Positions 40,807 to 53,134 of a DNA stretch of 64,000 nucleotides are shown piece after piece. The DNA lies in sequence record OR352954; one strand, given 5' to 3'. Both the position numbers and the translations under genes were made by a program. Every line of letters starts with the position of its first letter. The stretch's first letter is position 1. This DNA is from Escherichia phage AV124. The notes beneath the pieces were generated by a model that ran no database searches, was not told where the DNA came from, and worked only from the letters and a program-made list of their open reading frames with translations.

Positions 40807-41043
40807 ATGAACACCCTAAACACCTACACGAAAGTCTTTCACTTCTGGTGGCAAAATCTGGGAAGGCTCGATGTCGGCTCAAAAGATGAGGCACTCAGAG
40901 GTTGGCGAGACTGTATGCTTAAGCAGCACGAAATCAATGACAAAGGGAGTATCCTTCGGGGAACAGATGCTTATTGCTTGGGGTGGAACGCCGCTGTCGA
41001 GTTTATTCTTGGGGAGAATTACTATGGCTTACAGAACATTTGA
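40807..41043 (+). CDS. hypothetical protein
   Basis: ORF. Confidence 0.4.
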   Translation: MNTLNTYTKVFHFWWQNLGRLDVGSKDEALRGWRDCMLKQHEINDKGSILRGTDAYCLGWNAAVEFILGENYYGLQNI

Positions 41044-41227
41044 TGAATGGAACGCCCGTGGGAGGATCGTCAAAAAGGGCGAGAAAGCTATGGGTCACCT
41101 TCTTGACGGAACTGCTCTTTTTGGGAAGGAACAGACCAAAGGGAAAAAGAGTCGTGACTGGGGAGAGACTGACCTGGGTGATGCGCCAGACTCCTGGTAC
41201 ATGGGTGGGCCTGAGGATTATTATTAA
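41024..41227 (+). CDS. hypothetical protein
   Basis: Internal ATG of track ORF 40871..41227. Confidence 0.35.
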   Translation: MAYRTFDEWNARGRIVKKGEKAMGHLLDGTALFGKEQTKGKKSRDWGETDLGDAPDSWYMGGPEDYY

Positions 41228-41511
41228 TGAAACATATCCTACTGAAGAAGTGCAAACCTATAACCTACTGCAAATTCTGCAAAGCCATTGGTATACGCAG
41301 GCGTTGCACAGTTATGACGAAATACCAACCGCCGTGGGGACTGCGTGACTGGTACAAGCATTACGCCTGTGATGAACACAAACACCTGATTGAAGACCCC
41401 GACCCACGGGGAATCATGGAAGCTGCTGCAAAGAACCCTGCCCCACCACAAAAAGTTGCACGTGATGAGCACCACACAGAAGCTGACTATCAAACCTGGA
41501 TGAGGCTATAA
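41227..41511 (+). CDS. Cys-rich protein
   Basis: CKPITYCKFC...C...CDEHKH. Confidence 0.4.
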   Translation: MKHILLKKCKPITYCKFCKAIGIRRRCTVMTKYQPPWGLRDWYKHYACDEHKHLIEDPDPRGIMEAAAKNPAPPQKVARDEHHTEADYQTWMRL

Positions 41512-41940
41512 ATGATAAAACATTGCCATAATTGCAGTGCCTGTTGTGAAGTTATCGCCATAGATAACATCACGCACGAAGAATTTCACGAAAAGGTCAG
41601 GACCGGAAGAGTATCGGCTATCCACGGGGAGATGATGAAACCAATCTCCAGGGATGAGGCCTACAAACGGAATCCTCTTGTTGTTACAGGTCGTGAAGAG
41701 GTTGGTAAAGGAACAAAACACTTCACCAGCTACTTTACCTGCACAAAGCTGAAAGACAACAAGTGCTCAATATACGGGGATCGCCCGTACATGTGCAGCG
41801 GATATCCGTTCTATGACCGAGTGCCTGTGGACACACAATCACATGCTTCTCTGTGCAAGACACAGCTTCGCAGGAAGGACACCCCGTACTCCTCAACATG
41901 CACGTATGTCCCAAACCTGATCGCAGTCAAGAATATCTGA
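41512..41940 (+). CDS. CxxCxxCC-motif (YkgJ-like) metal-chelating protein
   Basis: HCHNCSACC N-terminal motif plus further conserved Cys. Confidence 0.4.
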   Translation: MIKHCHNCSACCEVIAIDNITHEEFHEKVRTGRVSAIHGEMMKPISRDEAYKRNPLVVTGREEVGKGTKHFTSYFTCTKLKDNKCSIYGDRPYMCSGYPFYDRVPVDTQSHASLCKTQLRRKDTPYSSTCTYVPNLIAVKNI

Positions 41941-41953
41941 CCCACACAACAAG

Positions 41954-41980
41954 GGAGCCTGAAGAGGCTCCTTTTCTTTT
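41954..41980 (+). terminator. rho-independent terminator
   Basis: ggagcc-tgaaga-ggctcc hairpin + ttttctttt; ends rightward block. Confidence 0.65.
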
Positions 41981-41994
41981 ATCTAAATTTTCCT

Positions 41995-42022
41995 TGACGT
42001 AAACAGTCAGCCCTGATATAGT
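41995..42022 (+). promoter_or_regulatory. sigma70-type promoter (TTGACG-N16-TATAGT)
   Basis: Hexamers just after terminator, reading into the non-coding region. Confidence 0.4.
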
Positions 42023-42029
42023 CATTATA

Positions 42030-43855
42030 CGCCAAATCTCCTGAAGCGGGAGGATACAATCACCACCCCTGCGTGAAAGGTTGCACATCCCATTAACACA
42101 CATAATATGAAGGGTCTCCCCGATATGTCGATAAAACACCATTTCATAAACACATTGCCGTAACGTGTCGATGCCATAAACATTACGGTGCGAAGCACTT
42201 TGCCAAAGGCAAAAACCTCCGGTGCTATAAATATATCGCCTTGGGCGATTAGCCAGAGGCTAACCCGTACACGGGTAAATATATCGCGTAAACAGGCCCC
42301 TGTTTTCCCCGTATAACCACCCCTTCCCCCCGTGGGGAAATCAAAACATACCCCCTGCCGAAAATATCACTTGCCGAAAAATATCATGGCTTGGTCCTTG
42401 GGTAAAAAATATTGTATTCGCACCATCTGCGGTGTTAGACGGACAGCTCCGGGCGTCAACTATCTTTACGGATCTTTACAAAATATCATGGGCAAGGTCG
42501 ATCCGGTTCCCGGTTCCTCGGGGCCTCTTCAGGCATGATAGTTACTTGCCGAAACTAATAATAATTGGGTGTGTCAGATAGCAAGCTTATGGTTTGCCAG
42601 CTTAGAGCACGATTTGCTATTGACTTGTTTATATTTATATGAATTACACCATTTAACATAAAACACGTTATACGCACTGACCAACAACGCATAGCAGACT
42701 AATAATGCCCCAATGTTACCAGTGTGACGCATAGGACAGCCGCTTCAGGTCATTACATGGTGTGACTGTTACTGTGGTGATAGTTTCATATGTGATTATT
42801 CATGTTTTAGGGTTGTTTTGTGAATGAGACGACGAATGAGAATCATTATTATTTCGATTTCGAATTCAATTTCGAAATGAGAATCATTCCGCAAATATAA
42901 ATATTTTGTAAATTTATAAATAAAAGCTTGACGAGGGAAGAGAATCGTGTTTAGCAATACATACTCTTTGAGCATCATTATCATTTGCGACTAATTCCCA
43001 TAAACCCTTGCTACGCAAGGGATTGATAGATATTTTCGATAATAAAAACACTTGACACTTCAGATAAAATCATGCTCAAAAACAAGCCTTTTCTCATAAG
43101 ATACGATCATCATTCTAATGGTTTGTCAACCATTAAACACGAATTAATTTGATTAAACTGCTAATTGTTTACAGGGTTTACTATCATCAGCGACACAATA
43201 ACACAATGCCCTTCGGGTTGTTTTCGCCACGGAAAACAATGTCCAGATTGACCAAAGGGGTTTTGTGAATCCCCTTTATCTGGACACAATAACACTAGGG
43301 CGATCAACGATAGTTGATCGGTGTTATCGTGGCGATGTGATAAAGTTTCATTGCTAATCATTACAGATGTAATGATAATATACTGTGATAATTTCGTCCT
43401 TGATCGTAGCGTCTACGAGCCACGATAACGCGAACGAGAATGCGATTTGTTCGCATTTGAGTTACCCTAGTGTTATTGTGTCGCTCGCTCCGCTCGCGCC
43501 ACTCCCCACGATTCGCGAACGAGAAATTTTATTGACAGAAAATGATTTCTATGCTCATAAAAAGCCAGTTCACACAATGAGTTAGATGAGGAAAGTTATC
43601 ATTATAGTGATTTATGCTCATATTCACTTCCAGTGCATAGAAATTCATGATTTATTCAGTTAATAACATGCGTTATTAATTAGGTGGGGTTGTGGGGTGA
43701 AAAGCCAGGACCGACACACAATTAAACGCAATATAAAGCGTTTTGAGCGTGGTTATCGGTTACCCTCATCATGGTATGTCTTGTGTTAGATCTCAATTAT
43801 GCACTTTTTTGCATAGCGGCGGGGCCGTGGTGTGGGTTGTTTATGGTGTGGATCT
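42030..43855. other. ~1.9-kb non-coding, palindrome- and repeat-rich region (candidate origin / regulatory region)
   Basis: No convincing ORF; numerous direct repeats, palindromes and nested inverted repeats. Confidence 0.5.
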
Positions 43856-43857
43856 GC

Positions 43858-43885
43858 AAAGAGAAAAGCCAGGTAAAAACCTGGC
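43858..43885 (-). terminator. rho-independent terminator for leftward block
   Basis: gccagg-taaaaa-cctggc hairpin; U tract on minus strand. Confidence 0.55.
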
Positions 43886-44142
43886 CTTTGTGTGATTGTC
43901 TTATGACTGGCTAGCCATATTGTTTTAGATAGTTTACAGCGGAAATTATTGCTTGTGCTCGGCTGTACTCTTCGCCGTTCACACGATAGCGCCGCGCGCC
44001 TTTATGGCACTGGGTGATCATAACCTGGATTATTCCATCCATAACATAGAATGCTTTACTTACGAATAAAATCATCTGATACTTTGCAACCGTGATCCGT
44101 GGCGTATGTTATCGCGTCATCAATTTTTAACATGTCACAACC

Positions 44143-44355
44143 TCATTCATTGATTAGTTTAAATTCCGCTTCAGGGTGATAAAGATCAGCCATATAGCGC
44201 ATTTTGTAATAGAAAGATACTTCCACAATGTGAGGCGCTTCGATTTCTATTTGTGTGATGAGAACGCTACCCGGCTTAAATCCTGGGGCGATGTCCGGTA
44301 ATTCGATAATCATTCCGCCTTTTAAATCTTTCGCTTTTACAGTTCCCATGATCAT
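44143..44355 (-). CDS. hypothetical protein
   Basis: ORF. Confidence 0.45.
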   Translation of the reverse strand: MIMGTVKAKDLKGGMIIELPDIAPGFKPGSVLITQIEIEAPHIVEVSFYYKMRYMADLYHPEAEFKLINE

Positions 44356-44585
44356 TAGCCTTTTTTACGTTTCATTACTTTGATCGCTTTTATGCCTTTT
44401 TGTTCGAAAAATTCCGGGCTTCGCAATTGTGCGGCACTGCTACGGCTTTTTACCTTAGTAGACAATACACCATAATAGCGCCCGTCATCATACTGACCAA
44501 TAAAATAAAAATCGTTTACGCCATATTTTTCATCCCCTGCTTTCTGGATGATTTCGGATAACTTGTCAATACTAATATTAATCAT
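44355..44585 (-). CDS. hypothetical protein
   Basis: ORF. Confidence 0.45.
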   Translation of the reverse strand: MINISIDKLSEIIQKAGDEKYGVNDFYFIGQYDDGRYYGVLSTKVKSRSSAAQLRSPEFFEQKGIKAIKVMKRKKG

Positions 44586-44633
44586 AATTGCTTTACCTCA
44601 AAGGATAGCGGGGCGGCTAGCGCCCCGGTTTGA

Positions 44634-44963
44634 TTATTTGTTAAGCTCTTTATATTCAGCGATCCAGCGGGTAAAAATCTCATACTGTTTTTGTGCTGCT
44701 TTCGCTGTTTTGTGAGAGATAACAGTTATATACCAGCAATTTCCTAAAACATAACCGGATGAATGATAAACCCACGGATATTTCGGATCGATCTCTTTCA
44801 GTTCTTTTTGACGTTCTGGGGACTCGCTCCAGACGTGAGAGACAAAATCAACGGCAGTATAACGGGGAACTTCAAGCGGGACACGCTGACCGAAAGCGTC
44901 AAACTTAAAATTGTGCGACTCTAAATGCTTGTCTAAAAAGGTGAAAAATTCTGATTTTGTCAT
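44634..44963 (-). CDS. hypothetical protein
   Basis: ORF. Confidence 0.45.
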   Translation of the reverse strand: MTKSEFFTFLDKHLESHNFKFDAFGQRVPLEVPRYTAVDFVSHVWSESPERQKELKEIDPKYPWVYHSSGYVLGNCWYITVISHKTAKAAQKQYEIFTRWIAEYKELNK

Positions 44964-45210
44964 TTCCGTTTACCTCGTCAAGTTGTTTTCGTTTGTTTGC
45001 CCTACGAGATAAATAATAATATAAGCGGGGATCGCTGTAAATAGCTCTTTACGTATCTTTACATTACTGTCGTTGTTGAGAGTAATTCTCATTACCGGAA
45101 TAGCGGGCACCTCCGGTGGCTTTCCTCCGGTATCCATCGTTGCCGCTTCAAAAAAGAATAGCAAAAACCAGGACCGAAAGCAAGCCCTAGAATTGTAAAG
45201 ATTTTGCCTA

Positions 45211-52030: not shown

Positions 52031-52257
52031 CTACCTGAAAATTTGAGTTATCTTTTTCGCTTATTTGAGATAAATGTCCAATCTTGATGCCAAGATACCT
52101 ATAGCAATCATACACTTGTGCATCATTTTTCGACATAGCTCCCACAAAGGTTTGAGATAATCTACTCCCAAAACTCTTGATTTAAAAATTTGCAGGGAAG
52201 ATGAAATCCGTTTCAAAAACGATTTTGAAAACCATTTCGAATTTTAAAATATCTTTG

Positions 52258-52290
52258 GGATATTAAATATCATACAAATATCCCACAGTT
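52258..52290 (-). terminator. hairpin downstream of leftward gene 52298..53134
   Basis: gggatatt-N15-aatatccc inverted repeat in AT-rich context. Confidence 0.35.
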
Positions 52291-52297
52291 TTGAATC

Positions 52298-53134
52298 TTA
52301 TCTGGGATTGAAAATATCCTTCCATTTAATAATATCATAGGTTGTGCCTGTAGAAATTTCATACATTTTAATCTCATCTGGGGTCGGATTACAAATGTCA
52401 ATGAAAAATGTGCTCAATACAGAAATCAGGAACCGTTCTGTCTTTCCTGGGACTGTGTAAACAATACGCATATCACCGGGAATAGGAGAAATGGCCAAGG
52501 AGGTAGGGCCATTCATAAGTGTAACGGTATTATCAGCAATCTTGATACGACCATCGACACCATACACCAAATCATGGACAGAAGAATAATGTGCAAGCAC
52601 CTCTACTACCGGGTTACCGACAAGGTTCACGAGGTAATCAAGATACAGGTCTCGCCATCCACGATTCTGCATCATGTACCGTATATGGGAACCTCCATCA
52701 AACATCTCGCCCAGTTGCTCTGCGATCCAGGCAACACCATTTGCAATGTCTTCTCTGTTCCAAGTGTTGTCGATATCTAAAATATCCTTGCTGAACTTGT
52801 TCAAACGGCGCATAGCATTGAGTACATACTCACCTCTTTCAACGAAGGCACGTTCAGTGTCTTTTGCATAATCGAGAAGCCCTTCAACCTCTGATCCTGT
52901 GGCGTATTGCTTAAGGTCATCAAGCACACTTTCCACACTGGCCTTGGCCTGATTGAAAGTATACTCATCAGTCTCGTCAGTAGAGAATTCTACACCACCA
53001 AGGGCGTATGTAGCATCATCATAGAGCTTTTTGAGATCATGACGCATATCCGGGAAGTCATAACCAACCTTGTTATGAGGGATAAGTTCAAGAGTGTTTA
53101 AAATAGTAGTCATCGTATATCGTCCTGTAATCAA
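52298..53134 (-). CDS. hypothetical protein
   Basis: 278-aa ORF. Confidence 0.5.
   Translation of the reverse strand: MITGRYTMTTILNTLELIPHNKVGYDFPDMRHDLKKLYDDATYALGGVEFSTDETDEYTFNQAKASVESVLDDLKQYATGSEVEGLLDYAKDTERAFVERGEYVLNAMRRLNKFSKDILDIDNTWNREDIANGVAWIAEQLGEMFDGGSHIRYMMQNRGWRDLYLDYLVNLVGNPVVEVLAHYSSVHDLVYGVDGRIKIADNTVTLMNGPTSLAISPIPGDMRIVYTVPGKTERFLISVLSTFFIDICNPTPDEIKMYEISTGTTYDIIKWKDIFNPR

Follow-up and report, generated by a model that had tools for sequence, protein, structure and literature searches.

A probable genome terminus and a conserved, strand-specific structured element in the gene-free gap of Escherichia phage AV124

Introduction

What occupies nearly two kilobases of phage DNA that hold no recognisable gene? 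Here we analyse such a gap in Escherichia phage AV124 (sequence record OR352954), of which a stretch of 64,000 nucleotides, called the window below, was studied. Between the stop codon of a + strand gene at 41940 and that of a - strand open reading frame (ORF) at 43911 lie 1970 bp (41941-43910) in which the longest ORF has at most 71 amino acids (aa); counted as DNA without an ORF of at least 75 aa, the gap extends to 2414 bp, the window maximum, the runner-up being 602 bp. A preliminary description of this DNA had placed here a 1.9-kb non-coding region between convergent terminators, carrying nested inverted repeats and operator-like palindromes, and had proposed that it might be an origin, serve in packaging or in the control of injection, or encode a non-coding RNA. 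The region is real, with slightly wider limits, and a terminator scan finds terminator-like hairpins at both of its edges (Table 1). Indeed, all of the listed repeats and palindromes were recovered within a few bases of the positions first given, several of the short ones being conserved sites and others chance matches or the edges of insertions and deletions (indels).

The density of repeats is itself unusual: the region contains 7 direct and 14 inverted pairs of exact 12-mers, against averages of 0.19 (direct) and 0.46 (inverted) over 300 Markov-shuffled sequences; five coding controls of equal length gave 0-3 pairs. An 18-nt perfect inverted repeat (43283-43300 / 43465-43482) lies far above chance expectation; the pair of 7-mers TGTCGAT (~42126 and ~42166), taken by itself, is not significant. 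Its sequence matches place the window phage in Mydovirus (rV5-like, Vequintavirinae), and the 53-62 phage records that the region matches all belong to Vequintavirinae, the closest being Raoultella phage Ro1 (~90%), followed by Klebsiella Mydovirus phages that include KB57, KNP2 and BIS47; Seunavirus phages (PVP-SE1, 4MG, GAP31 and Cronobacter phages) match at 72-75%, which is high for gene-free DNA.

Our answer has two parts. The region is probably the genome terminus, or concatemer junction, of a Mydovirus whose DNA is packaged in unit lengths bearing short, exact direct repeats at the ends, and such a repeat is already known in relatives (KPP-1, DP and Gotham). The second part, a structured element at 43283-43485, appears to be new: neither Rfam nor the literature searched describes it. 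Phages of the rV5-like genera Mydovirus, Seunavirus and Vequintavirus are widely sequenced therapy candidates, and their records open at arbitrary points, usually have the repeat collapsed and carry spurious ORFs annotated over it.

A single copy of a terminal repeat

The repeats of the Klebsiella phages DP and KPP-1 align end-to-end, without a gap (514/514), to positions 42438-42951 at 95.1% and 94.0% identity, and match nowhere else in the window, so that one copy only is present. DP is a linear record with an annotated 514-bp repeat_region at both ends; for KPP-1, a 514-bp direct terminal repeat (DTR) at 116,316-116,829 is documented by twofold coverage and a T7-type call from PhageTerm (PMC9862379), and PhageTerm likewise called a DTR in the Mydovirus KPP-X1 (PMC13064021). 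The record of KP12 has as its first base the homologue of 42438, and an IMG/VR isolate contig (L028, 148,842 bp) terminates exactly on the same GACGGAC motif. Further afield, Erwinia phage pEp_SNUABM_01 (Henunavirus) has both boundary motifs, 509 bp apart, and the E. coli Vequintavirus Gotham has 459-bp terminal repeats (PMC7471380). The Gotham layout matches that of the window, with the repeat (annotated as repeat_region at both record ends), ~1 kb of non-coding DNA, a terminator and then leftward genes. Because of the DP and KPP-1 alignments and the conserved boundary motifs described below, we take 42438-42951 to be the collapsed copy of a terminal repeat; virion ends are predicted at 42438 and 42951, with the second repeat copy at the right end. 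Homology to these 514-bp repeats and boundary motifs shared across genera thus lend strong support to the packaging or termini option of the preliminary description; for its origin and injection-control options the evidence spoke neither way.

Conserved sites at and around the repeat

Conservation was assessed in an alignment of 16 Mydovirus and Seunavirus sequences. The left boundary, GTG(C/T)TA^GACGGACA (with ^ marking the predicted cut), is invariant in 16/16 of them, takes the form TGTTA^GACGGACA in pEp_SNUABM_01, and may be compared with the annotated repeat of Gotham, which begins with GGCGGACGG directly after GTGCTGCCA. The right boundary, CTTGACA..GTGTT^TAGCA, is invariant in Mydovirus and Seunavirus and present in pEp_SNUABM_01, and the final bases of the Gotham repeat are CTTGACAAAGAGGAGAAAAACTTGTC^. 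The boundary sequences are kept across four genera, Gotham's being recognisably related, and both predicted cuts fall 0-1 nt past a TGTT. These two motifs, ..TGTTA^GACGGACA.. and CTTGAC-N18-..CGTGTT^TAGCA.., offer a simple means to orient and terminate genomes of this kind correctly.

Within the repeat, the invariant 18-mer GGATCTTTACAAAATATC near the left end is accompanied by AAATATTTTGTAAAT, likewise identical in all 16 sequences. The 12-nt core of the 18-mer, TTTACAAAATAT, has exactly two copies in the window, one per strand: the first starts 37 nt inside the left end, and the inverted copy (42901-42912, within an invariant block) ends 39 nt inside the right end. Together, 18-mer and 12-mer form a candidate site at which the small terminase subunit or some accessory protein would bind. 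The central conserved block is the only part of the repeat that gives a blastn match to pEp_SNUABM_01; the TTGACT that it contains (42620-42625) has no canonical -10 hexamer at 16-18 nt, and the promoter scan is empty here. Nearer the right end, the paired site AATGAGAATCATT is partly conserved in Seunavirus as (A/G)ATGA(G/T)AAT..AATCATT and has relatives in the Gotham repeat (GAATGAGAATAC and GAATGGGAATAC, of the type GAATG(A/G)GAATAC); it sits within a non-conserved 62-aa ORF discussed below and looks like a candidate protein-binding module.

Outside the repeat, CGAAAATATC lies on the left and takes the same place in Seunavirus and Henunavirus, with a GAAATATC form in Gotham. Copies of (C)GAAAATATC stand beyond the left boundary at 42359-42368 and 42376-42385, and an inverted copy beyond the right boundary at 43029-43036 is less conserved than those on the left. 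Taken together, the conserved sites at the repeat look like candidate protein-binding sites for the packaging machinery.

Two further observations concern motif copies elsewhere. In the Gotham locus (L022, 510-590), five direct (T)GTTTACA(C/T) repeats with a spacing of 14-18 nt lie 50-130 nt beyond the repeat boundary and resemble arrays bound by terminase small subunits; the window holds isolated copies only, TGTTTACA at 43166 and TTTACAAAATATC in the repeat. Separately, AAAATATC occurs 12 times in the window against 3.8 expected, with three + strand copies clustered at 52246-52786. Two of these lie inside the - strand ORF 52298-53134 and one just beside it, and the cluster is probably unrelated to the terminal-repeat sites.

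Table 1. Features of the gap and its edges, from left to right. Positions are those of the window; a dot means that no strand is assigned, and ^ marks a predicted cut.
Feature	Position	Strand	Basis and remarks
Terminator-like hairpin, bidirectional	41951-41974	.	Terminator scan; closes the + strand gene block
Sigma-70-type promoter-like site, TTGACG-17-TATAGT preceded by TG	41994-42022	+	10/12 matches; points towards the terminal repeat
Left spacer, hairpin-rich and indel-prone	42023-42437	.	Sequence, hairpin scan, alignment to relatives
GCCGAAAA(A)TATCA site, two copies	GCCGAAAATATCA 42357-42369; GCCGAAAAATATCA 42373-42386	.	Sequence
Left boundary motif GTGTTA^GACGGACAG, predicted cleavage site	42432-42446	+	Alignment invariance
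Direct terminal repeat, single (collapsed) copy; predicted concatemer junction	42438-42951 (514 bp)	.	Homology to the DP and KPP-1 repeats
Invariant 18-mer GGATCTTTACAAAATATC	42470-42487	+	32-49 nt inside the left end; identical in 16/16
Central conserved block GCACGATTTG..TTGAC..ATTTAACATAA-ACACGTTAT-CG-AC	42607-42680	.	Alignment invariants
Paired palindromic site AATGAGAATCATT	42835-42847 and 42876-42888	.	13-nt exact direct repeat, 41-nt spacing; brackets TTTCGA/TTCGAA repeats
Right boundary module: TTGACG box, 18 nt, ..CGTGTT^TAGCA; repeat end 42951	42928-42956	+	Alignment
Leader between repeat and structured element	42952-43188	+	Sequence, conservation
Leader: conserved inverted TTTGAGCAT	42966-42974		
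Leader hairpin CCCTTGC-tac-GCAAGGG	43005-43021		
Leader: inverted AAAATATC	43029-43036		
First TTGACA..ATGCTCA box	43052-43078	+	
Leader hairpin ATGGTTtgtcAACCAT	43118-43133		
91-bp presence/absence insertion	43205-43295	.	78 nt with three hairpins (one terminator-like) plus 13-nt duplicated GACACAATAACAC
Conserved structured element	43283-43485	+	Fold, covariation, covariance model
Outer stem, 18 bp (GACACAATAACACTAGGG and its perfect reverse complement)	43283-43300 / 43465-43482		Reaches 21 bp with the arm copy upstream
Hairpin 1, GATCAAC-gata-GTTGATC at 43302-43319	43301-43320		
Long-range inner stem, 13 bp, GGUGUUAUCGUGG/GCCACGAUAACGC	43321-43333 / 43419-43431		
Inner-arm repeats of the preliminary description	GTTATCGTGGC 43323; GCCACGATAAC 43419		
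Internal hairpin, with CATTAC-agat-GTAATG at ~43360-43375	~43357-43378		
Hairpin 3	43433-43463		
Inner-arm motif repeated in direct orientation, CCACGATT-CGCGAACGA (cf. 43419-43437), plus second box	43503-43557	+	Conserved in all relatives
Second TTGACA..ATGCTCA box	43532-43557	+	Within the 43503-43557 segment
Sequence-conserved non-coding tract: CAGTTCACACAA, TTAGATGA, TTATTCAGTTAATAACATGCGTTATTAA, AACGCAATAT, GATCTC	43558-43867	+	Alignment; small hairpins only
Terminator-like hairpin, bidirectional	43868-43885	.	Terminator scan; closes the - strand gene block

A covarying structured element beside the repeat

Some 240-330 bp rightwards of the repeat, the segment 43283-43485 takes up a nested, multi-branched structure with a minimum free energy of -93.5 kcal/mol (z=-9.3), and the nested palindromes of the preliminary description are the arms of its helices. 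They had been called operator-like; the nested repeats change in sequence from phage to phage while their pairing stays, which is why we read them as helices rather than fixed protein operators.

Homologues were gathered from GenBank loci, IMG/VR and metagenomes, the last with a 17-mer scan that returned 50 loci, 7 of them genuine relatives and the remainder chance matches without a partner arm. RNAalifold, run on a MAFFT alignment of 18 sequences, recovered the architecture and found double changes in 14/48 pairs. In a second alignment (A2, 22 sequences), 99.9% of 1054 cells are paired and 19/48 pairs show changes on both sides, a figure to be read beside the independent 14/48, as A2 was fitted to the model. 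Not one of 500 shuffles reaches any of these measures, and slid partners give at most 2 such pairs. The one-sided changes are all G·U on the + strand, with no A·C among them, and the + strand folds better than the - strand in 24/24 sequences, by 6-18 kcal/mol. The five bases beside the arm core alternate as TAGGG/CCCTA, GAGAG/CTCTC, GGGAG/CTCCC and GAGGG/CCCTC, and the Henunavirus-like outer arm (GCCACCTATAAACGCTGATAG) is wholly different yet perfectly paired. That 43283-43485 is paired is certain.

A covariance model built on this fold scores 219 bits, with a single match in the window. Relatives place the element 200-260 bp from the right boundary of the repeat; here the distance is 332 bp, because of a 91-bp insertion. 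In Gotham, a comparable fold with another arm (GACATAATATAAAAGCAG) occupies the corresponding position and is followed by a tract related to 43479-43510; position, fold and this short shared tract mark it as the probable counterpart. Rfam 15 gave no match at E<=1 on either strand of 41000-45000, and ARAGORN found no transfer RNA or transfer-messenger RNA.

Several observations weigh against this picture of a fixed terminus with an adjoining element. The window holds a single repeat copy, and the ends of this phage are taken from relatives at 94-95% identity. No terminase gene lies within the 64-kb window. PVP-SE1 and phiTE, from other genera of Vequintavirinae, have been described as terminally redundant and circularly permuted on the basis of restriction and Bal31 digestion (PMC3475682), and the Ro1-like Raoultella phage Macy, which may be close to the window phage, was reported to carry terminal repeats, in direct orientation, of 77 bp (PMC12827599). 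As for the element, neither of its flanking TTGACA boxes (43052 and 43532) is followed by a canonical -10 at 16-18 nt, and the covariance model misses the Gotham counterpart (E<=1). Fixed ends are nonetheless favoured, on the strength of the conserved boundaries and of what reads showed for KPP-1, KPP-X1 and Gotham. We suspect that the 77-bp repeat of Macy may be an assembler k-mer overlap like the 127 bp of SalP219.

The record ends of SalP219 and LNA4 were themselves considered as Seunavirus termini and set aside: those of SalP219 share an exact 127-bp overlap, typical of assembler k-mer overlap, that lies inside the structured element, and LNA4 was deposited as circular.

RNA, single-stranded DNA or origin

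The reading with the best prospects for the element, although its chance falls a little short of even, is that it is transcribed into a + strand non-coding RNA of ~200-450 nt starting downstream of the TTGACA box at 43052, the terminal repeat being a separate matter. Such an RNA could prime replication or form an R-loop, take part in packaging as a cofactor, or act as a decoy that counters a host defence. Compensatory changes occur in every helix, including the small hairpins that vary in length and loops, and these changes, together with the + strand G·U bias and the better + strand fold, make the non-coding RNA option of the preliminary description plausible for 43283-43485. Furthermore, G..A tetraloops (GAUA, GUUA, GAAA and GCAA) recur in hairpin 1 and in its extension in L028, additional loop hairpins are tolerated in Mydo and LNA4, and the element is flanked by two + strand TTGACA..ATGCTCA boxes unique to the locus, TTGAC-N11-17-TGCTCA occurring only twice in the window against 0.39 expected. 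A U-rich tract precedes the box at 43532, and within the subfamily the pseudo-ToxI of phiTE is a functional non-coding RNA (PMC3475682).

However, no canonical promoter stands in front of the element. As ordinary sigma-70 promoters the boxes were rejected, the spacing from TTGACA to -10-like hexamers being wrong and variable (13-25 nt among relatives); sigma-E and sigma-32 readings, judged by eye, did not fit either. In Ro1 and Mydo the downstream box is split by a 50-nt hairpin insertion that separates its TTGACA from TATGCTCA. There is also no clear intrinsic terminator and no Rfam relative, and few functional RNAs contain a perfect Watson-Crick stem of 18-21 bp, a feature commoner in DNA inverted repeats and RNase III substrates. 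A literature search for Vequintavirinae transcriptomes found nothing.

Somewhat unlikely, in our judgement, is that the element acts as single-stranded DNA. A + strand that is nicked or displaced beside the junction would fold, and leftward synthesis across the repeat, primed from the 3' end of the fold or by a primase or RNA polymerase that the fold attracts, would duplicate the repeat; in a variant covered by the same estimate, the fold would be a priming site for the lagging strand close to the genome end, comparable to the single-strand origins of rolling-circle plasmids, G4 and M13. The element keeps a constant position, ~200-260 bp from one repeat boundary, in four genera; its arms are long and perfect; and the + strand 3' end at the right arm, folded back, faces the repeat. 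A promoter is not required, and the strand bias fits a DNA fold equally well, G·T being the most tolerated DNA mismatch. In addition, T7-type phages must duplicate their repeat, and hairpin DNA has been seen in T7 infection, according to the passage of PMC4281155 that cites Chung and Hinkle (1990). Yet a simple palindrome would suffice for such a device, which leaves the conserved nested branches and the variable loop hairpins unexplained.

It is improbable that 42830-43520 is an iteron-type replication origin, in which six 13-mers would bind an initiator beside the most AT-rich DNA of the region. A family G(A/C)CAC(A/G)ATAAC(A/G)C does recur in both orientations (43192+, 43283+, 43321-, 43419+, 43470- and 43503+), GC content drops to 31-35% at 42800-43100, the inner-arm motif CCACGATAACGCGAACGA is invariant with Henunavirus included, and origins often lie in promoter-bearing non-coding DNA. 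However, the five variable bases beyond the 13-mer and the intervening hairpins change in a coordinated, pairing-preserving way, unlike independent protein sites, and the outer arms of Henunavirus and Gotham, although unlike the inner arms in sequence, still pair perfectly with one another. Because the outer 13-mer copies change between genera and stay complementary, we prefer pairing to a common binding protein. Changes in GC skew, moreover, track the direction of transcription, as the authors of the rV5 genome also concluded (PMC3606486).

On a last reading, the gap would be decayed or mis-sequenced coding DNA (pseudogenes or frameshift errors), its repeats being incidental. Several GenBank relatives do annotate small 'hypothetical proteins' in the homologous region, and genuine small genes are present in the left flank of relatives. 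The commonest annotated ORF is the counterpart of 42796-42984 (- strand, 62 aa), which straddles the right end of the repeat; it is broken by stops or frame-shifted in 11/16 sequences, and its variable columns fall 13/7/10 on the three codon positions, without third-position bias. A PHROG search of nine internal ORFs gave 0 matches, the flanking gene giving one. The small ORFs were accordingly dropped as genes. The homologous 2.27 kb of PVP-SE1 carries no coding sequence annotation, and the rV5 genome map marks the equivalent box 'non-coding' (PMC3606486). With ORF annotations that vary between records, a gene cassette in relatives that is a clean insertion at 41987/41994 and not a degraded homologue, and 72-90% identity with invariant blocks in DNA that is non-coding, decayed coding sequence is hardly credible, and the frameshift errors that the preliminary description had allowed for did not emerge from the comparison with relatives.

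Two annotation habits deserve mention here. The small 'hypothetical proteins' differ from record to record, several relatives placing a non-conserved ORF of 62-69 aa (KB57_185-type CDS) over the end of the terminal repeat. Separately, the OY-series records (OY978796, and OY757067, OY979426 and OY978784 for H9, H16 and H27) put the labels 'terminase large subunit', 'major head protein' and 'tail fiber' on non-coding DNA, which looks like the result of shifted feature tables.

A possible route to the virion ends and its counterparts in known systems

With the region read as a terminus, virion DNA would have its left end at 42438, extend rightwards over the whole genome and, after a second repeat copy, finish at 42951. 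The terminase or an associated nuclease would cut at the two boundary motifs, perhaps guided by GGATCTTTACAAAATATC and its counterpart in inverted orientation, by the copies of CGAAAATATC and by the paired AATGAGAATCATT, which lie just inside or outside the boundaries. Like T7-type phages, the phage would have to duplicate the repeat at each junction, through nicks and new DNA synthesis. The + strand-specific, multi-branched fold at 43283-43485 could then be a non-coding RNA, or a single-stranded DNA structure that folds back and primes the copying of the repeat or the replication of the end. That it represents a new class of cis-acting structure mechanistically coupled to the terminal repeat, whether it works as DNA, folding back or priming so that the repeat is duplicated at concatemer junctions, or as an RNA for packaging or replication encoded by the terminus, is a doubtful proposal that we put forward tentatively.

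The terminal repeat of T7 measures 160 bp and falls in the PhageTerm class 'DTR short'. As in T7-type phages, the repeat here comprises a few hundred base pairs in a non-coding junction, has fixed ends at conserved sequences, is flanked by short repeated motifs and appears as one copy in circular or collapsed assemblies. Unlike T7, the hosts of this repeat are large myoviruses, and the related phage CB7 lacks a phage RNA polymerase (PMC7344957); the genes converge here and the repeat lies between terminators, whereas the T7 repeat lies ahead of early promoters and genes, and the ends here come from homology. Duplication of the T7 repeat with a hairpin DNA intermediate is summarised in the part of PMC4281155 that draws on Chung and Hinkle (1990). 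The likeness to the T7 junction hairpin is an inverted repeat able to fold back, in unique DNA on one side only of the repeat; the difference is that the fold in the window spans 200 nt, is multi-branched, covarying and conserved across genera, and is predicted from sequence.

The minus-strand origin of M13/f1, the ori-c of G4 and ssoA are strand-specific, orientation-dependent folds of 150-300 nt whose long stems, imperfect or perfect, are kept by compensatory change. The element is of a comparable kind, strand-specific and long-stemmed; those origins serve circular single-stranded replication intermediates, however, and no sequence similarity to the element is evident, though none was tested for. 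The pRNA of phi29 is encoded next to the genome terminus and acts in packaging. Both this RNA and the pseudo-ToxI of phiTE (PMC3475682) share with the element an RNA-sized, structured form in a gene-free stretch of a virulent phage, but the element resembles neither in sequence or fold, and pseudo-ToxI, a 36-nt tandem repeat, sits at a different locus.

With its strand bias, its covariation and a spacing from one repeat boundary that is constant in four genera, the structure would provide a mutable handle on repeat regeneration. To our knowledge, how the repeat is regenerated at concatemer junctions has never been fully settled for phages with short exact repeats, T7 included. If the element is an RNA, it adds a new conserved family of phage non-coding RNAs; if it is coupled to the repeat, it would be conserved across Vequintavirinae since each virion end depends on it.

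Flanking sequence

The final gene of the + strand block (41512-41940) encodes a YkgJ-type Cys-cluster protein (phrog_14785, E=6e-82), the counterpart of which carries the YkgJ family annotation in Ro1, 4MG and GAP31. On the other side, the - strand block starts with ORF 43911-44075, and PVP-SE1, Mydo and Gotham have an annotated terminator where the hairpin at 43868-43885 has its homologous position. Large ORFs of the window encode a ligase, ThyX, NrdA/B/D and a CCA-adding-type enzyme, and beyond the gap the window carries genes of nucleotide metabolism.

The 91-bp insertion ahead of the element is missing in 14 relatives, whose high-scoring segment pairs overlap by 13 nt, and is shared only with Salmonella phage PVP-SE1, from another genus. 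Its 13-nt duplicates of GACACAATAACAC lie at 43192-43204 and 43283-43295, and it yields a spare upstream copy of the left arm of the outer stem (43189-43204). Beyond the element, a further repeat (D10, CGCGAACGAGAA) occurs at 43429 and 43514. The conserved tract that follows the second box contains no conserved ORF and gives 0 PHROG matches (43558-43867), and a structure test of 43554-43800 gave a RNAalifold consensus of just -8.9 kcal/mol with 2 covarying pairs, weak support for a fold.

On the left, the promoter scan finds in 41994-42022 the only canonical promoter-like site of the region. Breakpoints in blastn alignments show that relatives carry, between 41987 and 41994, an optional cassette of 1-5 small + strand genes (KPP-1, DP, Mydo, 4MG, GAP31, BIS47, KpS8 and EC152, as well as KB57 with one gene), which is missing from the window, Ro1 and KNP2; the promoter-like site lies downstream, not upstream, of this insertion point. 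Further right, a triple hairpin (42235-42276), edged by TAAATATATCGC at 42228 and 42276, forms the one perfect hairpin cluster in the 64-kb window, where shuffles give 0-1. It is included in a 92-nt indel of the left spacer relative to BIS47 and L060. A genome-wide family of triple-hairpin mini-elements was considered and rejected, there being one perfect cluster in the 64-kb window and no clean target-site duplication at the indel (42184-42275).

Insertions of ~36-55 nt with three adjacent short hairpins also occur at differing non-coding positions in Mydo, LNA4 and Ro1, with recurring ATCGC..GCGAT and CCCG..CGGG stems, and these small hairpin insertions look like a miniature indel-prone or mobile module. 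The remainder of the ~2 kb is a spacer that tolerates hairpin-rich indels and, in relatives, the small-gene cassette.

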